A stretch of 64,000 nt of DNA, from NCBI GenBank assembly GCA_963666835.2, contig CAXXGO010000006.1, positions 1,952,001 through 2,016,000 on the forward strand, written 5' to 3'. This stretch comes from Phycisphaerae bacterium. GTDB taxonomy: Bacteria > Planctomycetota > Phycisphaerae > UBA1845. Positions 44,745 through 63,937 of the stretch are shown piece after piece. Below the pieces are notes generated by a model. The model was not told the DNA's origin and did no database searches. It worked only from the letters and a program-made list of their open reading frames with translations. The position numbers and the translations under genes are program-made. Numbering within the stretch: the stretch's first letter is position 1; each line of letters begins with the position of its first letter.

Positions 44745-47700
44745 TCAAGGCGCCGGCAATACCACGATCCGCAGACCGACATCGTCGAAGGGGCGGGCGG
44801 GGTCGCGGGGGGAGGGGCGGGTGTGGTCGTTGGTGGCGGAGCTGCGGAAGGAGTCGCCTACGGACTGCAGCCGGCCGCCTGCGGTAGGGGAGACCCACTC
44901 GCTGACGTTGCCCAGCAGGTCATACACGAGCCAGCCGCCGGGTCGATATGACCCGACCGGGGCATACGCTCCGAAGCCGTCGGTGTGCCCGGGGGCTACG
45001 ATAAGGAACGATTCGTCGGACTCGAAGTTCGCCCGCTGCGGATCGAGTCGGCCCGTCCCGTCCGGTGTGTATGTCAGGAACCGTGGGTCAAGGTCACCAT
45101 CCCGGCGACCGCCGTTAAGGGCGCAAACCCACTCGGTCAACGTGGGAGGCCGGGCAATGACCGCATCGCCCAGCCGCTCGGTGAGTCGCCCGCAGAACGC
45201 GTGTACTTCGCCCGCGGCAATGAACGCCGCTGGGTTGGCATCCAGCGCCCGCATCTTATCGAAGAACTCGCCGCCGGAGTGGGGCGGCGGCCCACCCATC
45301 ACGGCCGTGTACTGGCCAACGGTCAGTTCGGTCCGGCTCATCCATACCGGGTCCAAAACTCCGGCTTCGGGGTCTGCGGGTATGAAAGTAAGGTCGAGCG
45401 TTGCTGCCTCTTCGCCGTTATCCGCCGGAATGGGAATAGACATCGTTACCCAATCCAACAGACCCTTGACGGTTGCCCGGTCATCTTCGGCTAGGATAGT
45501 CCAGGGATAGATCCGCTGGTCCAGGGCCGCTTCGACCGGATCGGCTTGCCCGGTAAGTGTCGGATAGTCCAGGTCCAACTCATCGAGCATCCGCCGGGCA
45601 GCACCCGTCCTATCAACTTCGGCCAGCCGAGCCCGCGTATCCGATGGGGGACTTCCCGTCTGCAGCCACTCGGTCGCCTGCGCCAGAAGCGGCTCAAGAT
45701 GCGCCCGGCGCGAATCGTCCAACCTCGCCGCGGCCGCATTGACCTTGCTGGTGAAGTGCTCCGCAAGGCCGGCCTCTGCCGCTTCGCGCGTCGTTTGATC
45801 TAAAAAGAACCGGGCCGCCCGCCAATCGCCGTGGGCTGACTTCTGCTCCGCCATTGAATACCGGGCATCGATCCGCGCCAGGCTCTCGCGCGTCTCCCGC
45901 CCCGGGGTCACCTGCACGGTAACGGTATTGACGGCCGCATCCGTTCCATCGCTGACCTCAACCGCAAAGACCAGCGTAGCTCCGTCGATCAGGTCCGGTG
46001 CGGTGAACGTCGCCTTGGCGGTGTCCGCACCGGACAGCGCGACCTCAGGTCCACCCTCTTGCGTCCACACGTACGTCAGTTTGTCGCCGTCGGGGTCGGA
46101 ACTGCCGGTCGCGTCGAGCGTTACCTCGCTCTTCCCCTCGACGGCTTGATCGTCGCCCGCCTGCGCAAGCGGCGGTTGGTTAGGGGCGGCTACGGGGCGA
46201 ACCGTAATCACTACCGTGTCGGTCGCAGAGGTTTGCCCGTCCGAAACCTCCAAGCTGAAAGACAGCTTGCTCAGCTCGGCCACATCGGGAGCGATGAACG
46301 TCGGCTCGGCGGTGCGGTGATCGGACAACGTCACTTCCGCGCCGCCAATGTGCGTCCACGAGTACGTTAAGGCGTCGCCGTCGGGGTCGCTGCTGTCCGC
46401 GGCGCTTAGCTTAACCTCCGTAAGCTCGTCAACCGCCTGATCCGGACCCGCCTTGGCGATGGGGCTCCGATTGACCGGCACTTCCGGGCGAACGGTCACG
46501 GTCATCGAATCCGCCGCGCCGACGGTTCCGTCGGAGATTGCTACGCGGAACGTCAGCACGGTCACTTCAGATACGTCCGGGGCGGTAAACGTTGCCAAGG
46601 CCGTCTCGGGGTCGGTGAGCGCCACTTCCGGCCCGCTCATCTGGTCCCAAGAGTAGGTTATATCATCGCCGTCCGGATCGCGGCTGCCTTCGGCGTCCAA
46701 CGTAACCCTCGCGCCCTCGGTGACGGTCTGATCCTGACCGGCATAAGCGATCGGCTCGGTGTTATGCGGCCAGGTTGCCCACACGACGATCGCCGCGGCC
46801 ACCGCGACCACAGACCCCGCCAGAGCCATTGCGTTCCTTTGCCTGCCGGCTCCGGCCCGCACCGCGGCCACCAGAGCGTCATCGTCCTGACCCTCATGTC
46901 TCGGCCTATCGTCCGATTCGCCGAGAGCTTCGGCCAGGGCATCATCCCACCGGCTCGGGCGGACGAACGAGAACCTCTCCAGATCCCACACGCAGTCCAA
47001 CTCCAGAGGATCTTGCCCCCGTACGGCCAGACGGAACCGAATCTCCTCGACGGGCTCGTCGATCCGTTTGGGGAGCACGGTGAGCTTGGCCTTTGCGCGG
47101 GTTTGCTTGGCTCGGACCTGGATCTCGGACTTCAGCGCCGCCCAATAGCCCCGTTGAGCTTCCAGGATGATCTTGCGGAGTTTCTTGGCTGCAGAACTCA
47201 GGTCTACGTTCCAAGTCGCCTGTCCGACCTGTGCACAAGTTACCGGGAACTTCTGAAGGGTCTGCGAACTCACCGGCCCGCCGGCGCGGATCGCCACCCG
47301 TCCTTCCAGTCTCAGCTCTTGCGGCAGAGTATCGGTGTCCGGCGCGGGCGGCAGATCGGCCACGACCAGAAGGACGGGGCGATACTCCTTCAACTCGTCT
47401 GCTCCGGCGAGCAGTCTCTGCTCCAGTTCCTTGCCGACTGCGGTCGCAGCAATCTGCAGAGCTTGTCTGACGAACTCGGCCGGATCACTGTAGGCCCAGC
47501 CTAACTCGGCGGCGTTCCAGGTGATCTCCGTTTCAACGAAGCCGGCGGAAGACTGCGTACCCAATAGCCTGGCCGTTGCCGGCAGAGTGACGACCGGCTC
47601 GCCGGGTACCACGGCCAAGTCGGCTTGCGGGAACAGTCCGGCGCGCAGGCAGTCTCCTAATGCCGTAACGCCGGCTCTTTGCATGCCCGTAAGCCAATCG

Positions 47701-50225
47701 TTCAACTCGTTGCGAAGCTGACCGCGCAGAGCGCCGTCTTCGTCGAGGATCCGTCGAGACTCGCCGTCAACTCGAAAATGGAAGCCTATTGCCGCTTCGG
47801 CCGGCGCCTTTTCCGGCGTTTGTTCGAGTGCCCGTTCAGGTCGCGGACATACCGTGACGCGCCATTCATCGGTTCCGCGATCCGCATTCGTTTCCTCGGT
47901 GTCCAACTGCACTTCGAGCGCGTCCGGATGGATCAGCGCCGGGAACTGCTTCGCCAACACCTCACGCACGAAACCGCGGGCAAGGGTCTCGACGGCCTCG
48001 CGTTTTAATCGCAGGTGATCGCGCGACTTCTCTTCGATCTTGGCTAACCCAAGCTGTCGGAGCTTCGTAGCGCGGTCCTGAATCTCGCCCGGGATGGTTT
48101 CTATCTGCGGGGGCTCGTCGAGGATTCGCACGGCCTCCTCCCACTGCCCGTTCTTGCCGGCTAAGTCCGCGCGACCCAGCCAAGCGTCAAGTTGGCGCCG
48201 GTCTTCTTCTTCTTGGGCACGCTCACGTTCGGCCGCTGCTATCGACTCCTGCAGTTGCTTCTCGTATTGGGCGGTCTCCTTGAGCAGCTTCGCCGGCAAC
48301 AGTTCGAGGTTCGGCCGTTGCGAGAGCAGCTCCGCACCGCCGCTGACGTCTTCACTTTCTGCGGCCTGGCGAATCTGCAGGCACCATTGCCGGGCGTGTT
48401 TCTCCTCGGTGCGTTTTTGCCTCGCTGCCTCGACGCGTTCGGTGAGCCGGTCGACATCGGCAACGATACCGTCGGGCCAATGCGTCAGCTTCGGCCGGTC
48501 TTCCAGCAATTGCTCGGCTCGCTCCCAGTTCTGGGCGTCGACTGCCAAGCGGAGCTGGTTTGCCCAGAGCTCGGCGGCGGAACGGTCGGTCTCAATCGCC
48601 TTCAGAGTCTCCAGTTCGGCGCGGTGCTCGTCGAGCTTGCGCCGGGCGTCGTCGGCGCGGGCCGCAATATCCTCGGGCCAGTGCCGCAGTTCGGGGCGAT
48701 TGTCGAGTAAGTTCTCCAGCGACTCCCATCTGGCACCGGTCAGCGCCGATTCAGTCTCCTTCATCCACTTCTCGGCAGCGGCTCGGTCAACCTCCATCGC
48801 CGCTTGGGCGGCGGGTAGAGCCTGCTCGAGTCGGTTGGAAACGCTTTGGCTTACCGTTGCCACCCGATTGCGCACCGGCTCCAGAAGGTCCGGTTCCGCT
48901 TGGCAATCGCCAAGTCGATCGAGCAAGGTCTGCATCAGCTCGACGGTTTCGTACGGCGCCGATCCTTCGTCCTGTTCGATTTGCCGCTCAACCTCGTCGA
49001 GCATCCGAGTTGTTGCCAGGCTCGACCTGACGCGCTCGCGCATTCCCCGCGCCCGCGTCGCGAGTTCCGCGGATACTCCGGGCGTACTCAAGACCCGCTC
49101 GACCGGCTCTGCCGCGGTTGGCCAATCTCCCCCCACAAGCGCCTGCTCGGCTTGAGCCAGCAGAGTGCTTGCTTCGGCATGAGCGGCGAGCGTGTTAGCC
49201 CTCTGCAACACGTCGGCCGGAGTGTTCGGATTCTCCGCCAAGCTCCGCGCCGCCTGCGAGACCTTGTCCCAATCTCCCTCCCGGGCCAGAGTCTCAACCG
49301 TTTCGAGCTGACTTCTAAGGTTATCAGCGGTGGCATCGCCGGACACGTGCTCGCTCAACGCCTCAACAACCGCTGAGGCAGAAGGCCGCGCGCGCGGCAA
49401 GCGGGCCAGCGCCTGGGCGATAAGTTCGCACCAGCGCTGCACCCCGGGGTCCTTGGATTCACGCAGGTCCTGGCGCCGGGCACCGTTGTAAGGGAACATG
49501 GCCATCAGCTCGGAGGTCTCCACCATGCGGTGGGCGTCCGGTTCGTCGGGCAGATATGGGTGTTTGTGCTCGGCCAGGAAGTGGAGGACGAACGCCGCGG
49601 AGATCACATCCGAGGCCGGCTCGAACGCGTGCAGGCTCTCGGTCCCGTACTTCTCCGGATCGATGAACGCGCAGATGCGGCCGTCTCGCTCGTATTCGTC
49701 CCGGGAGAGGACTTCCCACATTCCCGTGACTTGCACCTCTCCGGGGCCGGCTTCCACGGGGTTAACGGCCAGGTTCACGTACGCCTCCGTCCCAAACACG
49801 CTGCAGAACGCCGATGCAAAGGCGAAATCGGTGATCTTGGCGGTGCCGTCCGGGGCAAAGAGAAGCACGCGGGGGCATACCGCCCCGTGAACGATGGGCC
49901 GCTGTCCTTCACAGGCATGTGCGACGCGTAGGGCATCGAACATGGCCACCGTAACCCGCAACAGCTCGGATTCACGCATGGCCGGGGCCGATTGGTCGAA
50001 GAGCCCGCCGATCGCCATTGCTTTCGCGGGCTCATGCTCAACGTAGAACCCGCTTCCATCCGGAAGTTGCTGGAGCCCGCCGTGGAATTGGAGGACGTGG
50101 GTGGTTTGGGAGGCGATCTGGTCCTGGCGTTCGACTGCCGCGGTCAGGGCCTCGCCGAGCTTCTCCCAGTCACTATCGCCGGCATCGGCCGGTCGTCGGA
50201 TGACGCGTCGATAGCTTTGAGCCAC
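44745..50225 (-). CDS. Giant membrane protein: degenerate kinase domain, helical repeats, TM, three PKD/Ig-like domains, FGE-sulfatase-like domain
   Basis: HGAVCPRVLL..KITDFAF; three P.A.AG.DQ.V..V.L.A..S.DPDGD.LTY.W units; MSRTELTVGQY, PTLTEW, YDLLGNVSEW, VGLR. GTG start with GAGG RBS. Confidence 0.82.
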   Translation of the reverse strand: MAQSYRRVIRRPADAGDSDWEKLGEALTAAVERQDQIASQTTHVLQFHGGLQQLPDGSGFYVEHEPAKAMAIGGLFDQSAPAMRESELLRVTVAMFDALRVAHACEGQRPIVHGAVCPRVLLFAPDGTAKITDFAFASAFCSVFGTEAYVNLAVNPVEAGPGEVQVTGMWEVLSRDEYERDGRICAFIDPEKYGTESLHAFEPASDVISAAFVLHFLAEHKHPYLPDEPDAHRMVETSELMAMFPYNGARRQDLRESKDPGVQRWCELIAQALARLPRARPSASAVVEALSEHVSGDATADNLRSQLETVETLAREGDWDKVSQAARSLAENPNTPADVLQRANTLAAHAEASTLLAQAEQALVGGDWPTAAEPVERVLSTPGVSAELATRARGMRERVRSSLATTRMLDEVERQIEQDEGSAPYETVELMQTLLDRLGDCQAEPDLLEPVRNRVATVSQSVSNRLEQALPAAQAAMEVDRAAAEKWMKETESALTGARWESLENLLDNRPELRHWPEDIAARADDARRKLDEHRAELETLKAIETDRSAAELWANQLRLAVDAQNWERAEQLLEDRPKLTHWPDGIVADVDRLTERVEAARQKRTEEKHARQWCLQIRQAAESEDVSGGAELLSQRPNLELLPAKLLKETAQYEKQLQESIAAAERERAQEEEDRRQLDAWLGRADLAGKNGQWEEAVRILDEPPQIETIPGEIQDRATKLRQLGLAKIEEKSRDHLRLKREAVETLARGFVREVLAKQFPALIHPDALEVQLDTEETNADRGTDEWRVTVCPRPERALEQTPEKAPAEAAIGFHFRVDGESRRILDEDGALRGQLRNELNDWLTGMQRAGVTALGDCLRAGLFPQADLAVVPGEPVVTLPATARLLGTQSSAGFVETEITWNAAELGWAYSDPAEFVRQALQIAATAVGKELEQRLLAGADELKEYRPVLLVVADLPPAPDTDTLPQELRLEGRVAIRAGGPVSSQTLQKFPVTCAQVGQATWNVDLSSAAKKLRKIILEAQRGYWAALKSEIQVRAKQTRAKAKLTVLPKRIDEPVEEIRFRLAVRGQDPLELDCVWDLERFSFVRPSRWDDALAEALGESDDRPRHEGQDDDALVAAVRAGAGRQRNAMALAGSVVAVAAAIVVWATWPHNTEPIAYAGQDQTVTEGARVTLDAEGSRDPDGDDITYSWDQMSGPEVALTDPETALATFTAPDVSEVTVLTFRVAISDGTVGAADSMTVTVRPEVPVNRSPIAKAGPDQAVDELTEVKLSAADSSDPDGDALTYSWTHIGGAEVTLSDHRTAEPTFIAPDVAELSKLSFSLEVSDGQTSATDTVVITVRPVAAPNQPPLAQAGDDQAVEGKSEVTLDATGSSDPDGDKLTYVWTQEGGPEVALSGADTAKATFTAPDLIDGATLVFAVEVSDGTDAAVNTVTVQVTPGRETRESLARIDARYSMAEQKSAHGDWRAARFFLDQTTREAAEAGLAEHFTSKVNAAAARLDDSRRAHLEPLLAQATEWLQTGSPPSDTRARLAEVDRTGAARRMLDELDLDYPTLTGQADPVEAALDQRIYPWTILAEDDRATVKGLLDWVTMSIPIPADNGEEAATLDLTFIPADPEAGVLDPVWMSRTELTVGQYTAVMGGPPPHSGGEFFDKMRALDANPAAFIAAGEVHAFCGRLTERLGDAVIARPPTLTEWVCALNGGRRDGDLDPRFLTYTPDGTGRLDPQRANFESDESFLIVAPGHTDGFGAYAPVGSYRPGGWLVYDLLGNVSEWVSPTAGGRLQSVGDSFRSSATNDHTRPSPRDPARPFDDVGLRIVVLPAP

Positions 50226-50690
50226 GGTTGGTAGACCTCGTCCTGCCGTTAATGCCAAAGTCCAAGCGCCGCCGGGGACTTCCCTGCCGTCCCGCCCGTC
50301 CGGGCGGCCCGCGACCCGGTCCGATCCCCGGACGCCCCCGTGTCACGTGCCTGATAGGTTAGCAGCATTCCCCGACCCGATCGAGCCGAGGGTGGGGAAT
50401 CGACTCCGAAGCTCTCGTAGGGCACGGTCGAGGCACGAGACCTGCCGCAAAGGTGAGTGTGCCCCATCCTTTGCCCCGGGGTTGTATTGTGATAGGAAGA
50501 AAGCCCCGTCCGCAGATGGAATTACGGTACACGCATCGTTCATCGGGCGAAGGGTGGGGAATCGAATGGAAGGCGAGTCTCTCTCGGGCTTTCATCCATC
50601 CCCCACCCATTCCGGCGCTGAGGGAGCGCGGCTGTTCCAGGCCGGTACCCGCCGGAATGGAGCACCCGCGCCGGTATGAGGCACCCACTA

Positions 50691-52304: not shown

Positions 52305-52353
52305 CAAAAAACGACCGGGCGAGAGGGCGAAATCGCCGCTCTACGCCCGGCCG
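52305..52353 (-). terminator. Intrinsic terminator of the IPTL-CTERM gene
   Basis: Long GC hairpin (CCGGGCG..GGCGA/TCGCC..CGCCCGG) followed by six T on the minus strand. Confidence 0.75.
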
Positions 52354-52403
52354 CATGTCTCAGGTCAGCCGATCAGCCGACCTTGCCTCGCTCAGTCAGA
52401 AGA

Positions 52404-54314
52404 CTAGCAGGTCTCCCGCCGGCCGAAGTAAACCTTACCGGCAACCAGGAGCAACATCGCCAAGATGACCAGACCCCACTCGGAGACGGTCGGGATGGCC
52501 GTGTCGCAGCCCGGGAACAGGTCGTTATCGATGCCCGGGCACAGGTCGATGCAGTCGGCATAGCCGTCACCGTCAGTGTCCAGCTCGTTGTCGAAGCCGG
52601 CCATCGGGCCAACGCCACAGCCGCACTGCCCCGGAACGCTCTTCATCGGATCCAGGACGCACTCGTCATCCGAGTCGCAGAAGCCGTCGAGGTCGCTGTC
52701 GTCGGGGTTATCAAACGGGCACGGGTCAACGCCGTTGCAGACGCCGTCGCCGTCCATATCCTGATCGGCCTCATCGGCCTCGCAGGCATCACCCTCGCCG
52801 TCGCCGTCACAGTCGGCCTGGTCAGCGTTCATGACATCCACGCAGTTGTCGCAGAGGTCGGCAACGCCGTCAGTGTCCGTGTCGGTGCAGTCATTGACGT
52901 CGAGCAGGTTGCTCGGGGTGTACACGCCACCACCCGCGGCACAGTCGGCCTCGGGGATAACGGCACAGGTGAAGTCCGGGAAGCAGCAAGCGCCGACCGG
53001 AGTCGCACAGATCTCGCCAAGGAAGTTGGCGGGACCGCTCGAGAAGCCCCAGGTGTACCACACGCCGAGGTTCGGCTCATAGAACGCAGCATCTTCGCCG
53101 GTGTAACCGATGCGGGCAACGTCCGGGGCCGTGATCGGGCCGCCGAGCAGGTCGGTCGAGCCGATTGCGTACCAGAGAAGCTCCGGAAGCGCCACGGCGC
53201 CGGTCGGGGTGCAGGTGATCTCGCAGAAGCCCGAGTCGGGGCAGTTCTGCGTGCAGTACGTGTCCGCAATCGCAGCGCCGGGCTCGTTGAACATCAAGCA
53301 CAGTTCGCTGCCACCGTGACCGACGCAGTCGCCGTCATTCGCGCACACCGCATAGTCACCATCGCACAGCGTGGCGAAGTTGTACAGCTCGACATTGATG
53401 TCATAGGCAGCCGTGTAGTCCGCCGGGTGCATGTAGAACAGGCCCCAGTAGTCGACCAAGTCACGACCCAGACCGGGCTCCAGGTACCAGTCATCGCCGT
53501 ACTTGTCCGGGTACAGGCCATAGGCGCCCCAGTTGTCGATCGGCATGTAGCCGGTGCCCATCGGGCTCGACCGGTAAACGATGCACGGATCCGGCATGTC
53601 GCAGGTGTCCGTATCGTCATTGCAGACTTCCCAGTACTCACAGGGGTTGGTGCCCGCGACGCACATGAAGTCCACGCAGGTCTCGACACCCGTGCAGAAC
53701 AGACCGTCGTCACAGTCGCCGTCATCGTCGCAGGCCTCCTCCCACGAATACGTTACCGTGTAAGCCCCCGGCGCGCCCGCGTACTGGCCGTCGTCAACGA
53801 CGATCTGGTACACGGTTCCGGCAGTCAGGTAAGCCGTGAGCAGCGACTCATAGGCGCCCACATCACCGCTGTCGTCATCACAGGCGACGAATGCTCCGGG
53901 GCAGGCACCTTCGAGGATCATCAGGCTGGTATCCCAACCGGCCGGAACGGTCGCGGTGTCGAACGTCCACAGACCATCGGCCTCGACGGTGAACTCGAAG
54001 ATCTCGTCCTGGCCGCCGACACCATACCAATAGCACTGGGTCTCGCACTCGGCGTCGGTGCACTCGAACACGTTCGTCATGCCCGTCATATCGCTGGAGA
54101 AGCTGCCGCCCGCTGCGGCCAGCATGCCAAGGTCAGTGGCGGGGCAATCATCCGAGAAGACGGCCGGATCATGCACACCCGGCGCTCCAGGTGCCACGGT
54201 CGACGCCGCACGGGACATATTACCCGCATGACGCTGCGCAGGCTCCAAAGCCTGAACGCTGGCCACAACAACCAAACCGACAACCACGAAAGCTAAAACT
54301 TTTGTAAGTCTCAT
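52404..54314 (-). CDS. Secreted Cys/Asp-rich surface protein with thrombospondin type 3-like repeats and an IPTL-CTERM sorting signal
   Basis: Signal peptide (VQA); DxDxDGxxDxxDxC repeats; C-terminal IPTVSEWGL + TM + GRR; GGAGG/GAGG RBS. Confidence 0.9.
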   Translation of the reverse strand: MRLTKVLAFVVVGLVVVASVQALEPAQRHAGNMSRAASTVAPGAPGVHDPAVFSDDCPATDLGMLAAAGGSFSSDMTGMTNVFECTDAECETQCYWYGVGGQDEIFEFTVEADGLWTFDTATVPAGWDTSLMILEGACPGAFVACDDDSGDVGAYESLLTAYLTAGTVYQIVVDDGQYAGAPGAYTVTYSWEEACDDDGDCDDGLFCTGVETCVDFMCVAGTNPCEYWEVCNDDTDTCDMPDPCIVYRSSPMGTGYMPIDNWGAYGLYPDKYGDDWYLEPGLGRDLVDYWGLFYMHPADYTAAYDINVELYNFATLCDGDYAVCANDGDCVGHGGSELCLMFNEPGAAIADTYCTQNCPDSGFCEITCTPTGAVALPELLWYAIGSTDLLGGPITAPDVARIGYTGEDAAFYEPNLGVWYTWGFSSGPANFLGEICATPVGACCFPDFTCAVIPEADCAAGGGVYTPSNLLDVNDCTDTDTDGVADLCDNCVDVMNADQADCDGDGEGDACEADEADQDMDGDGVCNGVDPCPFDNPDDSDLDGFCDSDDECVLDPMKSVPGQCGCGVGPMAGFDNELDTDGDGYADCIDLCPGIDNDLFPGCDTAIPTVSEWGLVILAMLLLVAGKVYFGRRETC

Positions 54315-54551
54315 CCTCAACACACCTCCAAGTAAGTGTTGGTAATGCGAAGGCAAATGTGCCTCCCTCTCATCCGGGGTCGGTCCTGAACAACATTATT
54401 ACCAGCCTCTACTCTGACGCCGGTACAGCGGCACAACGCTCGAGCAGGGGGGGAACCCCGCTTTGTTGTTCGAGCTTGTCCGCACCAGGACCGAAGAAAC
54501 TCCTCTCCAAATACAAGTGAAAAACCGACATTCACTCGCATCGCGGGTTTG

Positions 54552-55256
54552 TTAGGAACCCGCGAAACGGAATCCGAGAAGTTCCTTACCTGGAGGTGCG
54601 CGAGGACGACTTGGGCTGAAAAGATGTAACAAAAACGCAGGTAGTTCCGATGGGATCAACCGGCCCGGAGACCGGGTCGATCGCGGCAAAACGCGAGGCC
54701 ACCCGTTGGGAGTACACGCGTCGCTGAGCATCGAAAGCAAAAGAGCGTTGACATACGCCACAATGAACGCCACGACGACGTAGCCGGCGAGGTAGCCCAT
54801 TGTGCGAACGATAAGTCCTTGCCCCTGGGTACCGGCGAGCAGCCCGTTACGCAGGCCGAGCGGCTGAAGAGCCAGTTCCACACCGATCCACCCGAGCCCC
54901 AGCAGCAACGGGCTGAAGCCCGCCCGCCGAGTGACAAACGACCCGGCAAAGGCGTACAAACCGGGGACCGCCGCCAGCAGCGCGAGGGTAGGTATCGAAG
55001 ACGTAAAGGAGGGGGCGCCGCCGAAAACGCCGAGGCTCAAACCCCAGAACGCACCCGCCAGCAGAGCCCGCCAAGGCGCCAGCACGCGAATAGCGTAGAA
55101 CAGGGGAATTAACGTAAACCAAGCCAGCCAGGAGGCTACCGGCGACTGCAAGGCAACGCCCATCAGCCACGCGCTACCCGCGAGAGCGATTCCGAACCCC
55201 GCCACTTTCGCGGCGTGTCCGACGAACCCCAACCTCTCAGGTGCCCTCGCGGCCAC
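54552..55256 (-). CDS. Membrane protein resembling the Lnt N-terminal domain only, with a C-terminal RAPP motif
   Basis: WLAWFTLIPLF, LLAGAFWG, WIGVELA, LAGTQ, AFIVAYVNALL match the Lnt membrane-domain pattern. No nitrilase domain. Ends SRPRAPP plus 12 aa. GAGG RBS and GTG start. Confidence 0.75.
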   Translation of the reverse strand: MAARAPERLGFVGHAAKVAGFGIALAGSAWLMGVALQSPVASWLAWFTLIPLFYAIRVLAPWRALLAGAFWGLSLGVFGGAPSFTSSIPTLALLAAVPGLYAFAGSFVTRRAGFSPLLLGLGWIGVELALQPLGLRNGLLAGTQGQGLIVRTMGYLAGYVVVAFIVAYVNALLLSMLSDACTPNGWPRVLPRSTRSPGRLIPSELPAFLLHLFSPSRPRAPPGKELLGFRFAGS

Positions 55257-56606
55257 AGCAACCTCGCTTTGTTGTCAAGGCTGCGACGGAAGTGAAAGAG
55301 CGAAGATCACCACGCTGGATGGTGACGCGCCAGACAAGTCCACCGTGATAGCGAGAGAACCCCGCTTTCATCCACGGTCATGCACCGAAGCCCGTTCGGA
55401 GCCGACCTGCCCGTGACGCAAACGCTCCGCAACCTCCGTTCAACAACCTCTCTCACCCGCGATGCCCGCCTGCCGGAAGAGATGATCGAAAACCTTCGAC
55501 CGGCGAACACCAACTCCAAACCGCTCACGGTGGGCGCATGCAAAACACACGCTCCGCAGCTACCGACCTGAGCACCAACGGCAACAAAGACCACCGCCGG
55601 ACCCTAAGCCGGTTCTACTCACCACCCCAGTTTGCGATTCACTCTTCGAAAGGGACCGTTTCTCATCCTCCGCAGCAACACCCGACCGGCGCCCGGTGCG
55701 ATTCCCGTCATAGACGGGACCGAACCAGAGACCCGCGACCGGCCCGGGCCTGCGAAACCCGGGCTTTTCTTCCCAGGTCTCTTGCGTACCTCAAACGGGT
55801 ACGAAATGTCGAACACGCGACCAAACCCGATTCGCCTAACATGCCCCCGGCAAAACGGATGTCCGCGGTCCGAACTCATCCTAACACCGCCTCTCGCATC
55901 TTACGGCCACGAAGACTGTGGCGGGACAAGCTGGCTCGAAAGCCATGCGTCGATGCGAGGGCAATTAACCCTCCAAAGACGTTAATCACGGTAAACACCC
56001 GTAGTAGCGTGCTAATCACCTATCTCACGCCGATAACGCCTTGTCAGCATCATAACGCAACTTCCGACAAAGATGCAAGAGAAAAATAAGCAAAGACCCG
56101 CCCTTATTGCTCGGTTTTTAGTTTAAAGATCACGCTAGCACTGTTCGTGGTTGGCGCGGCGGCGGGCTCGTAATAACGCGGATGGGCCCTATAAGAAGTC
56201 CGGTGTTAATCTGGGGGCTTTGTAGTGAATATGCGTGGCTTTGCCGGATTGAGCGTGTTGTTGATTAGATCCGGTGAGTAACAGGCGTGGAGAATCTGCG
56301 TTTGCCAATACTGAGCCGCCCGTTTTCGCGTTGGCGGGCTGGTATAACCTGTAGCTCTGCCCCCTGCGAACTGCTCGCCGCGGAGGTGGCGCAGGTAGGG
56401 CCGGCGGAAAAAGAAAAACCCGCCGCCAGCGTCATCTCTCAACCGATGCGTAGGTTGTGGATCAACTCACAAGTTACTCACAAGCCGGCGCGGGGGCAGT
56501 GCGTTGACGGTTGCCGATTACGCTTCTAACGTCTGCCCGTCAATGCTCATGCAGTGACATGTGAGTGTCATAAGAGAGTGGTGGAACGGGCGTCGGGAGG
56601 TATGCC

Positions 56607-58302: not shown

Positions 58303-59203
58303 CGGGGTCGCCTTACGCGGCGTGGTCGGGAATCGGGTGGGCGGACCGGCGGTTTCAGGGTGCCGGTGCGGTGCTGCCGCCCCGGGTGAAGGTCCGGTTA
58401 TCACGGGCTTTCGTTGTAGCTTGAACCACTAACGAGACGCCGGCGGAGTCGGGTCGTGTTTGGGCGACCTTTCCGGCATCGACATGTTGCGTTGGCAACC
58501 CTGGGAGGCCGGGGAATAGCCCTTATTGCCGGGCTACAAATTAATACACGGCGAGGGAACCACCCTGTGGCATCCATGATATCCTGCATATACAGGGTTA
58601 AACGCCGGTGGCGGGTGCGTGGCATCGCGGTGGGGCTGTGGGCGATTCTCCACCGTTTTGCAAGATCATTCTGTTTTTCTCTTGACGTAGTTTGCCGGAT
58701 CCGGTATTCATAAACCGTCCAGTACGGGGTAAAGAGTGAAAACCACACCATACTGGTACATCTGTTGAGACCAATCGTAGCGCGAAGCGTGCTGCAGCGT
58801 TGGTCACTGTCGTGTTCCTTTTGCCATGTTGTAGGGGGTTGGCAAGAGGATGGGGTTTTGACGTGTCGCCTAACGGGACGCGGATGACGGTTTATGGTGC
58901 CGCGGTTGCGGCAGTAGTCGTCAGCTAGTTTTAGAGCACGGTTAGACAACCAATAGGTACGCAGCGTGGGGCTGTGTGCGCCGGCGGTACGTCCGTTGAT
59001 TCCAGTGGTCGGTTCCGGCGGGGCAGCCTATCGGTTGCTGTTGCGCTGAGCAGGGGAAGCTGTGCGGACGGTACGGCGCTCCTGTGACGGGCTGCGCTTG
59101 TTCTGCGCCGTCTGGCCGCAACGGACAGGCGGGTCGCGTCCTCTGGATGGGGGCGTTCTCGAGGTTGGTATGGATAGGTCCAGACAGCAGGAGGTACGGA
59201 AAC

Positions 59204-62200
59204 ATGAAGGGTAGAGTTGGTCGTGGTTGGTGGGCTCTTGGCGGAGTTCTGGTCGTGGGCCTGATGGTCTTCGGCTTGAACCTGCAAGGGGCGCCGGCGG
59301 AAGACGGGGCTTTTGTTGACGTAGGTATCGCGGATCAGGTGGGCGACGTTGACGAGGCGACGTCTGTTTCGAGGCAGTCGGCGGCGCGGCTGTTGGCACC
59401 GCAGAAGACCGGCGGACTTCGCTTCGCGCGGTTGAAGTCCGCGGAGCCGGTTGCAGCGTTCGGCGGCATCGGTGGCATCGCGGATGTGGGGGATCCCTGC
59501 GACTGCGATGCGGATTGTGCGGTCGAAGGCCTGCAGGATCAATGCCTGAAGGCGGAGTGCGTGGACGGCGCCTGTGAGCACAACTGGTTGGATGTCGGAG
59601 ACCGTTGCGATGTCGACGGTAATTACTGCACGAGCGATGCATGTGCGCACTCCGGCGTGAGCCTGTGCGTCGGCGGCACGAATGCCGGCGGCGTGTGCAC
59701 CGGCGCGGCGGATTGCCCGGGGGGCTACTGCGGTGACGAAGTCGTATGTATGGCGCGGGCTGACGGCGCGGGCGGAAACCTGTCGCCGTGCGCCAAGGAG
59801 TGTGTGGGCGGTACCGAGAACGGTCTGTGGTGCTACGAAGCGGGTGATTGCCCCGGTGGCGCGTGTATGCCGAAGACGGGCGTGACCTGCGATGAGTCGG
59901 AGGACTGGTGCGAGCTGTCGAGCGGGCTGGGGCGCTGCTGCGATTCCAGCGGCGGATGCACGCACACTACCGAGGTCAATTGCACGGGCGGAACGTGGCT
60001 CCGGGTTTCCGACCCGGATGATCTGGGACATTGTTGGTGCCCGGCTTACAGTAGTGGTATTGCTCCTCGGGGAGATATCCTGACGGTCGTCGAGACGATC
60101 ATCCCTTCGTGGAAAGTCTGCGAGCACAACGAGAACCTGTGCGAGGGGGATGGCACGGCGGATTGCCACGGCTACTGCAACGTTTCGGAAGAGCTTTGCG
60201 ATACGAATGACGATTGCCCGGCCGGCGAAACATGTCTTGCGGATGCCTGTATTGATGACGTTGAGGCTTGCGATGATGGGTTCCTCTATCTGGGTGACGA
60301 CTACTCGCTGGCGGCAGGTACCGGACCTATTCGCCTCAACGAGTTCCGCTTCCGGGGTGGTATCCAGAACCGCGGCGAGGCGATCGTGGTGTCCTTCTAT
60401 ACGATGGAAGGCCTGTTCGTAGACTCGTTTGGGATGCTGATTCCGGAATCCGGCGCCCACTACTGGACCTATGAGGTCGATTGCTATCCGGACTGTGATA
60501 ACAATACGGATAACGCCGACTTCCCGGAGGATCCGCCGGTGATCATTCCGGAGAGCGGCTACGTTGTTTTCAGTAGCTGGCGGCACGAGGCCAACTGGAC
60601 CAATGCGCACTGGGCCTCGACGGATACGGTCGACTTCGGCACCAACGACCCGGATCTCCTATGGTACGAGACGAAGGTGGACGGCAAGCACACGGACGAC
60701 TATCCGGGTACTACGCCGGACGTCATGATCTTCGAGTTGGTCGGTCAGCCGCTGGGAACGAACGACGAGCCGAACGGCGCTTGCTGCACGGTTGACACCG
60801 GCGTTGGGGTTTGCGATGACACTCCGCGATGGGAGTGTGGCTTCTGCGAAAAAGACCCGGCTGTGGCGTGCTCCACGAGTCGCGATTGTTCGGCTGACGA
60901 CTTCTGCAGCTTCCGGAACTGGTTCGGTCCGGTGGCCCATGAAGATTACACCGGACACACCGGGATACTCTGTGATGGGAACGCGCCCTGCGATACGGGG
61001 GCCTGCTGCGCTGACGACGGCACTTGCACCCCGGACTCGAACCCGGGTGCTTGCGACTCGGCAGGTGGTACGTTCCTCGGTTTCGCAACGAGTTGTGATC
61101 CCAACTGTTGCCCGCCGCCGGACACGGAGACCGGTGCGGATGCGGCTTGCGACATCTACCAGTGCCATGATGGGACTGATTGGGTAGATCCGTATGACAT
61201 GTGCGGATCGAGCGACCCGGATGATCCGGACTGCGATACGGCGGCCGGCGAAACCTGTATGCTGCGCGCTTCCGGTCCGACGGCCTATACGATCAACATT
61301 CCGGCGCTGGGTAGTCCGTCGAACGCGATCACCTTCATGGGTGACAGCAGCGGTCACGAGCCGTATTTCGGGCTGGTGGACGGCGACGACTGCAACCTTG
61401 GTGAGCTTCATGACGTAGGTTGGTACGAGGCGATCGAGATTGTCAATCCGGATCCGATGAACCCGCTGATCTTCGACTGTGCGGTCGTGACGGTGGACTA
61501 CTGCTGCAACGACCCGATGCTCGATCTCGTTTATATCGTCCTGAAGGACTGCTGCCCGTGTCCGGGTGGTGGCTGCTGGGTAACGTTGGACCTGGACCAG
61601 GCCGGCGTCACCAGGGGCGGGTTCGGACCGGGTTGCGGAGCCGAGCACTGCTGCCAGGACGGTAACTTCGCAGGGACGTTTACGGTTCCCCCGGGACGCT
61701 ACGCTGTTCAGATTGATGCCTCCAACGTTTGTGAGTTCACCAGCAATTCCTGCGTGGACGACGACGATTGCCGGCCCGGCCAGCCTTGTATCGACAAGCG
61801 CGGTCCTTATACCGGTCATGTGACGGTTGGGCCTTGCTCGCCGGCGGCATGCTGCGTGAATCGGTGTGTGGGTGGCGCGAACGACGGCGCGGTTTGCGAA
61901 GGCGACACGGATTGTCCGGATGGTGCCTGCAATAACGTTTGCGAGGTTGTCCCCGGGATCATCTGCGAGGAGAACGGTGGAGATTGGCTCGGTTACGGTG
62001 ATCCGGTCACTCCGACCTGTGCTGCAAGTCCGTGTTCGCAGGGTTCGTGCTGCACCGGCGGCGGCGTTTGCGAAGACGGTGCTGCTTACGACACTGAGGC
62101 CGAGTGCGAAGCTGCCGGCGGTGTCTATCACGGACATCTGGTGTGTGATGACGGTCCTTGTGCGACGTGCTCGTTCGAGAGTTCGACGAACTGCAAGGAA

Positions 62201-63937
62201 GACGACGACGATGGGAGCATCTACGTCAGCGACCGTAGTCCCGGTGTAGAAATACGGATCGCGGATGACTTCCGTCCGGCCGGTACCCAAATCGGGGAAA
62301 TCTGTTGGACGGGGGCGTTCTACGGCAGCAATGAGGACGGAACGCAGTTCGAGTGCGCCGACAATCCGCCGCCGGATAGCTGGCAGGTGCGGTTCTTCGA
62401 GGATTCCAATGGAGTCCCCGGAACCGAGCTGGCTCCGGTGGGCGGCCAGATCGTGACGATCATTGCGTCTTCGGCCGATGGCGGTACCAGCCGGTTGTGG
62501 CGGTACATGGGCGGATTGCCCCAGGCCGTATTCGTAACGCCGGGAGACTGCTACTGGATCGAAATCACCGGTCTGGGTGAAGGCGAGTACGGTTGCCATA
62601 CCTATTGGGCGACGGCTCTCGAAGGCAATGATCACAGTATGCGGGATATGGCAGATCCGGGTGTCTATGGTCCGGAGGACGCTAATAACGTCGACTTCCA
62701 TTTCTGCGTCGACACCGGCCTGCAGGGCACGGAAGACTGCGGTGACGTCCGAGCGGCATGTTGCACATGCCCGGGCATCTGCGTGGATGATCAGACTGCT
62801 GCCCAATGTACGGCGCAGGATGGTGTCTGGCGATTGGGTATGACGTGCTTGGACACGCCGGCCTGTCCCGGACCGCCCGTCAACGACGACTGTGCCGACG
62901 CGATCGAGGTGGAGCATGCCGCGATCGACTCCCCGCCGTTTATCGTTGACTTCGAGAATGTCTGCGCGGAACGGCACGGCGGTCCGGCTACCGAGTGTGC
63001 CAATTATGACGGTGACCTCAAGCACGATGTCTGGTACGTCTACACCGCACCGGGCACCGGTGAACTCAAGGTCTCGGCATGTGATCTGTTGGTGTGGGAT
63101 ACCATGATGGCGGCTTACCCGGGCGGTGTTGATGCCTGTGTGCCGACCATCGATGACGAGTTGACCTGCGGTGACGAGGATTGTGACGACTTCGGTCCGT
63201 CCGAGATCACGCTGAGAGTTCTCGCCGGGCAGGAGTACCTCATTCGGATCGGTGGATGGCGAACGCCGATGTACCAGATCAACCCGCGCGGTTGGGGGCA
63301 GTTGGAATTCACGTATACCGACAACCCGCCGTCAGTTGAGCCGCCGATTGCGGCGCCTTCCCCCGAGGGTGGCCCGAAGAACCGGTACATCTCGATCAGG
63401 TCGGCGAATGTCGGTACGCCAGTTGCGTTGCAGGTGATCGTAGCGTCCAGCCAGTACTTCCCGGATTCGGTCGGCGAGACCAAGTATGTCGGTGCCCAGA
63501 CGGCTAGCGGTTACTATCCGCTGATTGACATTCCGCTGGTACAGGTCTGGCCGGAAGAGGATCTGCACATCTTCGATTGCATGATCCACCCGGTCGCTAC
63601 CTTCGAGGTGCGGGCCGGTGACGGAGCCGGTACCTGGTCCGATCCGCTGACTATCGGCACGATTACCAAGCCTGGTGGGAAGAATCACGGCGACATCGTC
63701 GGGTCCTTCACTGGTACGTGGCAGCCGCCGGAAGGCAACATGAGTATGAACGACCTGATGGCCGCGCTGCAGGCGTTCGGTAATGCCGCGACGGCTCCGC
63801 CGAAGCACTGGGCGGACGTACATGATGACGGCCCGAACCAGTTGGTGAATATGTCGGACGTTCTGTTGTTGGTGAACGCGTTCGGTGGTTCTGCGTATCC
63901 GTACAATCCGGGTACCGCGGCCGTACCGTGTAGCTGA
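59204..63937 (+). CDS. Very large secreted Cys/Asp-rich protein with a C-terminal dockerin-like domain
   Basis: AGGAGG RBS; signal peptide; repeated CVGG.N.G..C....DCP.G and GACC modules; PVNDDCADA; KNRYIS; twin GD..D/AD..D EF-hand-like end. Confidence 0.85.
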   Translation: MKGRVGRGWWALGGVLVVGLMVFGLNLQGAPAEDGAFVDVGIADQVGDVDEATSVSRQSAARLLAPQKTGGLRFARLKSAEPVAAFGGIGGIADVGDPCDCDADCAVEGLQDQCLKAECVDGACEHNWLDVGDRCDVDGNYCTSDACAHSGVSLCVGGTNAGGVCTGAADCPGGYCGDEVVCMARADGAGGNLSPCAKECVGGTENGLWCYEAGDCPGGACMPKTGVTCDESEDWCELSSGLGRCCDSSGGCTHTTEVNCTGGTWLRVSDPDDLGHCWCPAYSSGIAPRGDILTVVETIIPSWKVCEHNENLCEGDGTADCHGYCNVSEELCDTNDDCPAGETCLADACIDDVEACDDGFLYLGDDYSLAAGTGPIRLNEFRFRGGIQNRGEAIVVSFYTMEGLFVDSFGMLIPESGAHYWTYEVDCYPDCDNNTDNADFPEDPPVIIPESGYVVFSSWRHEANWTNAHWASTDTVDFGTNDPDLLWYETKVDGKHTDDYPGTTPDVMIFELVGQPLGTNDEPNGACCTVDTGVGVCDDTPRWECGFCEKDPAVACSTSRDCSADDFCSFRNWFGPVAHEDYTGHTGILCDGNAPCDTGACCADDGTCTPDSNPGACDSAGGTFLGFATSCDPNCCPPPDTETGADAACDIYQCHDGTDWVDPYDMCGSSDPDDPDCDTAAGETCMLRASGPTAYTINIPALGSPSNAITFMGDSSGHEPYFGLVDGDDCNLGELHDVGWYEAIEIVNPDPMNPLIFDCAVVTVDYCCNDPMLDLVYIVLKDCCPCPGGGCWVTLDLDQAGVTRGGFGPGCGAEHCCQDGNFAGTFTVPPGRYAVQIDASNVCEFTSNSCVDDDDCRPGQPCIDKRGPYTGHVTVGPCSPAACCVNRCVGGANDGAVCEGDTDCPDGACNNVCEVVPGIICEENGGDWLGYGDPVTPTCAASPCSQGSCCTGGGVCEDGAAYDTEAECEAAGGVYHGHLVCDDGPCATCSFESSTNCKEDDDDGSIYVSDRSPGVEIRIADDFRPAGTQIGEICWTGAFYGSNEDGTQFECADNPPPDSWQVRFFEDSNGVPGTELAPVGGQIVTIIASSADGGTSRLWRYMGGLPQAVFVTPGDCYWIEITGLGEGEYGCHTYWATALEGNDHSMRDMADPGVYGPEDANNVDFHFCVDTGLQGTEDCGDVRAACCTCPGICVDDQTAAQCTAQDGVWRLGMTCLDTPACPGPPVNDDCADAIEVEHAAIDSPPFIVDFENVCAERHGGPATECANYDGDLKHDVWYVYTAPGTGELKVSACDLLVWDTMMAAYPGGVDACVPTIDDELTCGDEDCDDFGPSEITLRVLAGQEYLIRIGGWRTPMYQINPRGWGQLEFTYTDNPPSVEPPIAAPSPEGGPKNRYISIRSANVGTPVALQVIVASSQYFPDSVGETKYVGAQTASGYYPLIDIPLVQVWPEEDLHIFDCMIHPVATFEVRAGDGAGTWSDPLTIGTITKPGGKNHGDIVGSFTGTWQPPEGNMSMNDLMAALQAFGNAATAPPKHWADVHDDGPNQLVNMSDVLLLVNAFGGSAYPYNPGTAAVPCS

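Follow-up and report, generated by a model that had tools for sequence, protein, structure and literature searches.

The minus strand of a 64,000-nucleotide (nt) stretch of Phycisphaerae DNA (assembly GCA_963666835.2, contig CAXXGO010000006.1, positions 1,952,001 to 2,016,000; hereafter the window) carries a 234-amino-acid (aa) membrane protein, here called the leader, upstream of a gene for an exported protein, the cargo, with an IPTL-CTERM sorting signal. Judged by its sequence, the leader belongs to an intact and conserved family in which a membrane domain derived from apolipoprotein N-acyltransferase (Lnt) is joined to a RAPP motif close to the C-terminus. On balance, and by a modest measure, it is best read as a RAPP arrest leader that switches on the IPTL-CTERM gene while the ribosome is stalled and is released when its membrane domain meets a component of the exosortase-H pathway. 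Following the NCBIfam model names and general knowledge of the field, IPTL-CTERM (TIGR04174) is taken here to be the partner of exosortase H (TIGR04177).

The leader domain and its conserved end

The leader opens with a GTG start codon immediately preceded by GAGGT. Its sole Pfam match is LNT_N, at aa 28-172, which covers all 159 positions of the model (E 7.7e-5; 23.4 bits, under the cut-off of 27.1, which several homologues exceed). The same scan gave no nitrilase (CN_hydrolase) match in the 234 residues, in agreement with the preliminary description of this DNA, made from the letters alone, which had proposed a match to the membrane domain only. An AlphaFold2 model, computed from an alignment of 90 sequences (90 of the 120 homologues listed in the first search, below), contains six helices up to aa 180 and then an unstructured tail (pLDDT 75, pTM 0.59). 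Lnt is the best structural match of this model, filling the top 19 rows (Z 9.5-12.1, root-mean-square deviation 3.0-4.3; next match Z 8.4), a similarity that is middling for a helical bundle. Foldseek returned E-values of 0.1 or worse, the best again for Lnt (E 0.1), and a sequence search of the PDB with the family profile gave 0 matches. Sequence comparison places the last leader helix on Lnt helix 6, and some structural alignments place it on helix 8.

Like Lnt (PF20154 plus a nitrilase domain), the leader has helices 1-6 by both profile and fold, and it keeps the W-x-x-E of helix 5. Unlike Lnt, it lacks helices 7-8, the catalytic domain and the FPW loop present in the genome's own Lnt, and it therefore cannot be the Lnt enzyme. 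Read in this way, the protein is Lnt helices 1-6 minus the catalytic domain, followed by a linker and RAPP. The family alignment holds 16 invariant and 27 near-invariant columns, nearly all within the membrane domain, and no conserved cysteine. The sequence from 54200 to 55700 is identical across three public assemblies, which may include the source data.

RAPP occupies aa 219-222 (codons 54602-54591), at the position first reported, and lies near the end of the protein, as described, but the protein does not finish on it, since 12 residues follow before the stop codon. The last modelled helix ends at about aa 178-180, which is 42-44 residues before the A-site proline, against the linker of about 40 aa proposed earlier. 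A first search found 179 homologues, with RAPP or RGPP in 118 of the 120 listed, and a HMMER search of 50%-identity clusters without a length limit gave 535 matches at 1e-10, the best 150 of which are all at most 418 aa and thus not full-length Lnt. In the pooled homologues R[AG]PP is present in 252 of 263, RPPP or RSPP in 6 more and no such motif in 5; RxPP variants also stall (PMC7897499; this and the other PMC articles are cited here from excerpts). The spacing from N170 to the motif arginine is 49 residues in 204 of the 252 and within one residue of this in 244, so that RAPP is conserved at a fixed distance, the test that had been set beforehand. The tail after the motif has at most 12 residues in 223 of the 252, and at linker positions -38 to -3 the commonest residue reaches only 11-52%.

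Because the earlier queries contained the motif, leader frames were found again in genome and metagenome DNA with a profile cut at aa 178, which excludes the tail. All 73 complete genome frames re-found in this way carry R[AG]PP (70 loci and the three copies of this genome; 2 more are cut by contig ends). The 80 metagenome loci comprise 74 distinct complete frames with RxPP, 4 duplicates, 1 cut frame and 1 that stops early, that is, 74 of 75 distinct complete frames. As a background, R[AG]PP occurs in the last 24 residues of only 15 of 8,616 open frames of at least 180 aa in this genome, against 252 of 263 homologues, so its presence in the leader is not due to chance.

The distribution of the family is patchy. 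Leaders occur in 49 of 201 genomes of the order and in 0 of 300 other genomes of a phylum-wide sample, and the named relatives that carry one are mostly Phycisphaerae. A second phylum, to which a Zixiibacteriota-titled genome belongs, gave matches in 24 of 121 genomes: 5 matches are true Lnt (506-520 aa, without the motif), and 18 further complete leaders, many of them distant (E 1e-10 to 1e-22), have the motif in 18 of 18. No longer, fused leader forms were seen among 7,996 candidates, which is weak evidence, and a protein-cluster atlas returned LNT_N-only clusters for the family and no new function. A group of leader-family proteins is mislabelled as Lnt in some databases.

The cargo genes and their sorting signal

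The cargo start codon (ATG 54314) lies 237 bp after the leader stop, in the same orientation, as had been noted, and the product, of 636 aa, begins with a signal-peptide-like segment and shows a TSP3 repeat match and an IPTL-CTERM signal above both cut-offs (Pfam 26.8 bits, TIGR04174 21.6 bits). For the 73 complete leaders of the genome set, the downstream gene is complete in 60 cases, runs off or is masked in 9 and lacks sequence in 4, and an IPTL-type signal is terminal in 60 of the 60; start picking for this set favoured ORFs (open reading frames) ending in IPTL, and unfiltered listings give the same result. Compared with Pfam, 53 of 58 cargo tails are confirmed at E 0.05, 47 of them over the cut-off, and the remaining 5 show the motif by eye. 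In the second phylum the signal is terminal in 17 of 18 by eye, and the eighteenth has it mid-protein. The metagenomes add 44 of 44 complete downstream genes (one locus, L151, was added and another, L131, removed by eye). Across the three sets, the next gene is IPTL-type cargo in 122 of 122 complete cases, and no sec or yidC gene was found 3' of any leader examined. The preliminary description had expected large secreted proteins downstream; a consistent downstream class does exist, but it consists of IPTL-type (exosortase H) cargo and not of large secreted proteins in general. The mid-protein case (L103:2261-3328) belongs to a tandem leader-cargo-leader-cargo array and carries its signal at aa 251-278 of 356, followed by more membrane sequence with a weak midcut-by-XrtH match.

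The 58 cargo bodies, of 108-1,806 aa, fall into 20 unlinked BLAST clusters. The bodies are thus unrelated yet the signal is constant, and the link of the leader is therefore to the sorting signal. An XrtH-like gene is encoded in 48 of 49 carrier genomes, against 73 of 201 overall (the exception being a weak partial match); 29 of 87 leaders, among them the paralogue at C6:1044082, have one no more than 6 kb downstream. In these respects the unit resembles the IPTL-CTERM/exosortase H system, with its cargo signal and co-occurring XrtH-like gene.

Several observations accompany this pairing. In this genome at least 37 IPTL-CTERM matches exceed the cut-off (63 at E 1), and four matches belong to the exosortase family; its surface is, on this predicted gene content, heavily exosortase-dependent. 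A 248-aa membrane protein (L074:4557-5300; G000:C6:1048056-1048802, +) is encoded 3' of an XrtH-like gene, in the same position in 14 of 14 related loci holding one, with a weak XrtH match and no Pfam family; it is possibly a second exosortase subunit. The leader copy in the window itself reads IPTL at aa 85-88. Two further ideas were rejected. The suggestion that leader helix 4 is an IPTL decoy fails in profile comparison (probability 0.5%) and in score (-37.6, against +68 for true tails, and no better than true Lnt), and the codon indices of the leader-bearing cargo genes (0.77, 0.72 and 0.46 among 57) are uninformative as to whether these are the most expressed IPTL genes.

Probable arrest, predicted messenger RNA structure and the signal that may be sensed

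Arrest at RAPP is very probable, judging from the motif and the Streptomyces precedents, in which 7 of 7 tested RAPP/RGPP leaders arrested (PMC12992588). The leader resembles the arrest peptides of that study (Fujiwara et al., 2025), which have fewer than 300 aa, membrane segments, a C-terminal RAPP or RGPP and a co-oriented next gene, and which include four-helix examples. Unlike the leaders described there, it has an Lnt-derived sensor and a sortase cargo, neither of which is described or tested in the excerpted passages of that study. Among the rows listed in the source list of its Fig. 4B, six have an IPTL-CTERM downstream gene; two of these are loci of the present set (L030, L046) and three more appear, by eye, to belong to the Lnt-type leader family. 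The excerpted main text contains neither 'Lnt' nor 'acyltransferase' and has IPTL-CTERM outside its top 30 classes, although its Appendix may name the class; the excerpts of PMC10987492 mention neither Lnt nor exosortase. Literature searches, which did not cover subscription papers, found no description of an Lnt-derived arrest leader before IPTL cargo, no paper combining 'exosortase' and 'arrest peptide', and no arrest leader in print for IPTL-CTERM/exosortase H, of which two listings make mention.

Like SecM, MifM, VemP, ApdA and ApdP, the leader is predicted to be membrane-targeted with a C-terminal arrest motif, and the predicted mRNA helix of the window copy matches the Shine-Dalgarno (SD)-sequestering stem that a stalled ribosome opens in SecM (PMC7897499). 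Unlike these proteins, which control sec or yidC genes, it precedes sorting cargo, sometimes followed by exosortase H; its sensor is a conserved six-helix domain, and its helix spans 288 nt. With CruR/DUF2946 (Roy et al., 2022; PMC9426467) it shares RAPP near the end, a long intergenic region and a fixed spacing between sensor and motif. CruR also has an unstructured tract with more C than G and a Rho site, and is on when stalled; a comparable tract occurs here, where the role of Rho is putative. CruR, unlike the leader, is a small copper sensor with CXXC, encoded upstream of a TonB receptor, and neither DUF2946 nor CXXC was found in the leader, for which Pfam gives LNT_N only and which has no conserved cysteine.

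In the window copy, 54609-54585 is predicted to pair with 54336-54311 in a helix of 25 pairs (four G-U, one bulge; -43.9 kcal/mol). Because the RAPP codons form this predicted helix over the downstream SD and AUG, a stalled ribosome would switch the cargo on. When the codons were recoded synonymously 20,000 times, 2 versions gave a helix as strong, and the cognate site ranks first among the genome's 7,781 GGAG..ATG windows. The 351-nt fold has a z of -8.4, and the cost of opening the start region falls from 33.0 to 12.3 kcal/mol when the ribosome footprint is blocked. All mismatches in the helix except the bulge are G-U pairs, which suggests selection on the RNA. Family-wide, the 60 nt before RAPP are poor in G at synonymous sites (0.25 vs 0.38), and the tract from -60 to 0 folds more weakly than recoded controls in 58 of 70 loci and is more C-skewed in 56 of 70, a pattern shown neither by the first half of the linker nor by 94 ordinary genes. 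Rho is encoded in the genome, and by analogy with CruR the C-rich, unstructured tract hints at Rho control. In 68 of 160 loci (against 11% in the membrane domain) the proline in the P site is encoded by CCT, which gives the anti-SD core CCUCC; this codon is commoner where the SD has GGAGG (48/92 vs 20/68, p 0.006, with kin that are not independent). A short G-rich hairpin recurs by eye 15-40 nt 5' of the cargo SD in one subfamily (window 54340-54380, minus strand; L005, L011, L016, L017, L018, L024 and L034). When the DNA of 40 relatives was searched, no closely similar copy of the intergenic region of the window copy turned up.

The steps would then be as follows. The ribosome would stall while the two prolines occupy the P and A sites. 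In the window copy it would cover the 5' arm of the 25-bp helix and so release the SD and AUG of the cargo; elsewhere in the family the same on-when-stalled polarity would follow from a weaker anti-SD pairing or from masking of a C-rich Rho site. This polarity, by whichever route, is probable. The linker would keep a distance of about 42-44 residues between helix 6 and the catalytic centre, at which the final part of the insertion force would depend on membrane partners: helices cease pulling at about 45 residues (PMC7886326), and in EmrE a force that depends on a partner sets in when about 40 residues separate the last helix from the peptidyl transferase centre (PMC9436324). A candidate partner (an IPTL helix, uncleaved or released, or exosortase H itself being the most likely) may pull the chain free and turn the cargo off, providing feedback on sorting load. 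Release by such a partner, as feedback, is a tentative proposal, somewhat less likely than not. For feedback to work with this polarity, release must be promoted by the downstream product, and the products share only the IPTL helix and processing by exosortase H; a pathway sensor is therefore favoured. The status of the exosortase-H pathway is thus the most likely signal, in preference to the membrane insertion or lipid state first suggested.

A number of results weigh against this arrest-and-sorting model. RAPP alone is insufficient for arrest (PMC7897499). The SD helix is not family-wide: cognate and shuffled pairings do not differ (p 0.40, n=69; p 0.17, n=18; p 0.36, n=73), recoding gives p 0.15, a pairing signal at -36..-6 (p 0.004) failed replication (p 0.93), and at least 10 anti-SD pairs occur in only 3 of 87 and 4 of 73 loci. 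Covariation of the bases flanking CCUCC/GGAGG is mostly not significant (one of 16 tests, p 0.011), and the excess of CCT could come from tRNA choice. A leader precedes only 3 of the 61 IPTL-like genes examined in this genome and is therefore not needed for sorting in cis. On a quick tree of 118 leaders, two CTERM subtypes switch once, which fits a simply co-inherited cassette whose middles were swapped just as well as it fits molecular matching, and shows co-inheritance, not binding. Kin among the family members are not independent in any of the counts.

Three other functions, and a non-functional origin, were weighed. The leader could be a general membrane-insertion monitor like MifM, in which the arrest ends once helix 6 has been integrated by Sec/YidC, and the cargo is no more than the gene under its control. 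The end of helix 6 lies just inside the distance of about 45 residues at which insertion force ceases (PMC7886326), and the known RAPP monitors answer to Sec/YidC (PMC7897499). The absence of sec and yidC after any leader examined nevertheless makes this unlikely, as does a polarity that would add cargo when export is short, and the exclusive IPTL pairing and the many invariant columns would be left unexplained. It is similarly improbable that a retained Lnt ligand cleft reports an envelope lipid, perhaps the anchor donor of the exosortase. Lnt is the best match of the model and Lnt structures, by their titles, hold phosphatidylethanolamine (PE), lyso-PE and Pam3; substrates of archaeosortase and rhombosortase receive lipid anchors (bioRxiv 2023.06.07.544157), and CruR is a ligand-released RAPP arrest (PMC9426467). 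The leader lacks helices 7-8, the nitrilase domain and the FPW loop, however, one would expect a lipid sensor to precede other envelope genes as well, and lipid attachment by exosortase H is only putative. There is little likelihood, too, that the stalled chain tethers the two-gene mRNA at the membrane and hands the cargo tail to exosortase H, one leader per cargo: such an escort would account for the strict adjacency to IPTL cargo, the conserved membrane domain and the frequent position of xrtH as the next gene, but 58 of the 61 IPTL-like genes do without a leader, and the SD/AUG helix and C-rich tract point to expression control. A decayed or split Lnt with an incidental RAPP, which the weak Pfam score of the window copy might suggest, is refuted by the conservation data and highly improbable, given hundreds of intact homologues of similar length, an invariant motif and spacing, true Lnt matches of 506-520 aa without RAPP, and an intact Lnt encoded elsewhere in the genome.

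Feature map, other leaders and significance

The features are collected in Table 1. The terminator-like hairpin downstream of the cargo closes what is likely a two-gene unit of leader and cargo; a consensus scan found no intrinsic terminators or sigma-70 promoters above chance near the leader.

Table 1. Features of the leader-cargo unit, in window positions
Feature	Position	Strand	Basis
Leader ORF, 234 aa: Lnt-derived six-helix membrane domain, linker, RAPP	54552..55256	-	ORF, Pfam, model
aa 9-180, six predicted helices that correspond to Lnt helices 1-6	54717..55232	-	Pfam, alignment, model
Linker aa 181-218, variable sequence, near-fixed length	54603..54716	-	family alignment
Weakly folding mRNA tract 5' of RAPP, rich in C and poor in G, seen across the family; possible Rho loading site or anti-SD	54603..54662	-	recoding controls
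RAPP codons, predicted stall site	54591..54602	-	conservation; PMC12992588
5' arm of predicted 25-bp mRNA helix (codons around RAPP)	54585..54609	-	RNA folding
Intergenic region, 237 nt, predicted nested hairpins joining both helix arms	54315..54551	-	RNA folding
3' arm of predicted helix: SD GGAGG (54329-54325) and cargo AUG (54314-54312)	54311..54336	-	RNA folding
Cargo gene, 636-aa exported Cys/Asp-rich protein, TSP3 repeat match	52404..54314	-	Pfam/NCBIfam
IPTL-CTERM sorting signal, exosortase H type	52407..52502	-	profile matches
Terminator-like hairpin, -36.7 kcal/mol, with T run	52306..52354	-	folding; absent from consensus-scan list

Elsewhere in the window, a 1,837-aa protein (44745-50258, minus strand) combines a kinase-like N-terminus, PKD repeats and an FGE-sulfatase-like C-terminal domain, and an exported Cys-rich protein of about 1,600 aa (59084-63937, plus strand) has only a weak galactose-binding-like match and no IPTL tail. 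The same genome contains further leader-like frames. A 108-aa ORF (L105:1990-2316; G000:C6:908489-908815, +) is CruR/DUF2946-like by eye (His-rich, CxxC, RAPP) and precedes a PEP-CTERM protein and a prepilin-type gene. A 176-aa multi-helix ORF with a RAPPA end (L106:1198-1728; G000:C6:2329197-2329727, +) lies directly 5' of a ferrochelatase/glutamyl-tRNA reductase fusion and is a candidate haem-responsive arrest leader.

A second, unrelated RGPP leader (L104:6498-7160; G000:C6:2268497-2269159, +; relatives L217-L231) has a signal peptide, a proline motif with one helix and basic residues that resembles a sorting signal, a conserved PxWYHxGGPxQIG and RGPP near the stop, and matched no NCBIfam model. 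In this genome it lies 3' of an exosortase gene and 5' of three VPxPGA-type cargo genes. Its family comprises 16 loci from 13 of 251 genomes, with an RxPP end in 15 of 16 and VPxPGA-type cargo next in 16 of 16, and it may monitor a PEP-type exosortase as a mimic of its substrates. That each of two leader types goes with a single exosortase cargo class raises the plausibility of pathway-linked control, though it is not proof. It is possible, if rather speculative, that an enzyme domain has been repurposed as a nascent-chain receptor for the sorting helix of exosortase-H substrates, which would give, through ribosome arrest, the first feedback on a C-terminal sorting pathway, and that the RGPP leader does likewise for PEP-type cargo, so that such control would have arisen at least twice.

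Monitoring by arrest peptides is established for Sec, YidC and some metal genes; to our knowledge, the regulation and chemistry of exosortases in bacteria have barely been tested. If the proposed reading is true, this leader family would extend arrest-peptide monitoring to C-terminal sorting by exosortases, through the reuse of the membrane domain of a catalytic enzyme as a sensor. The window copy, with its predicted 25-bp helix over both SD and AUG, would be an unusually clean and mutable switch, which could serve to report exosortase H activity.

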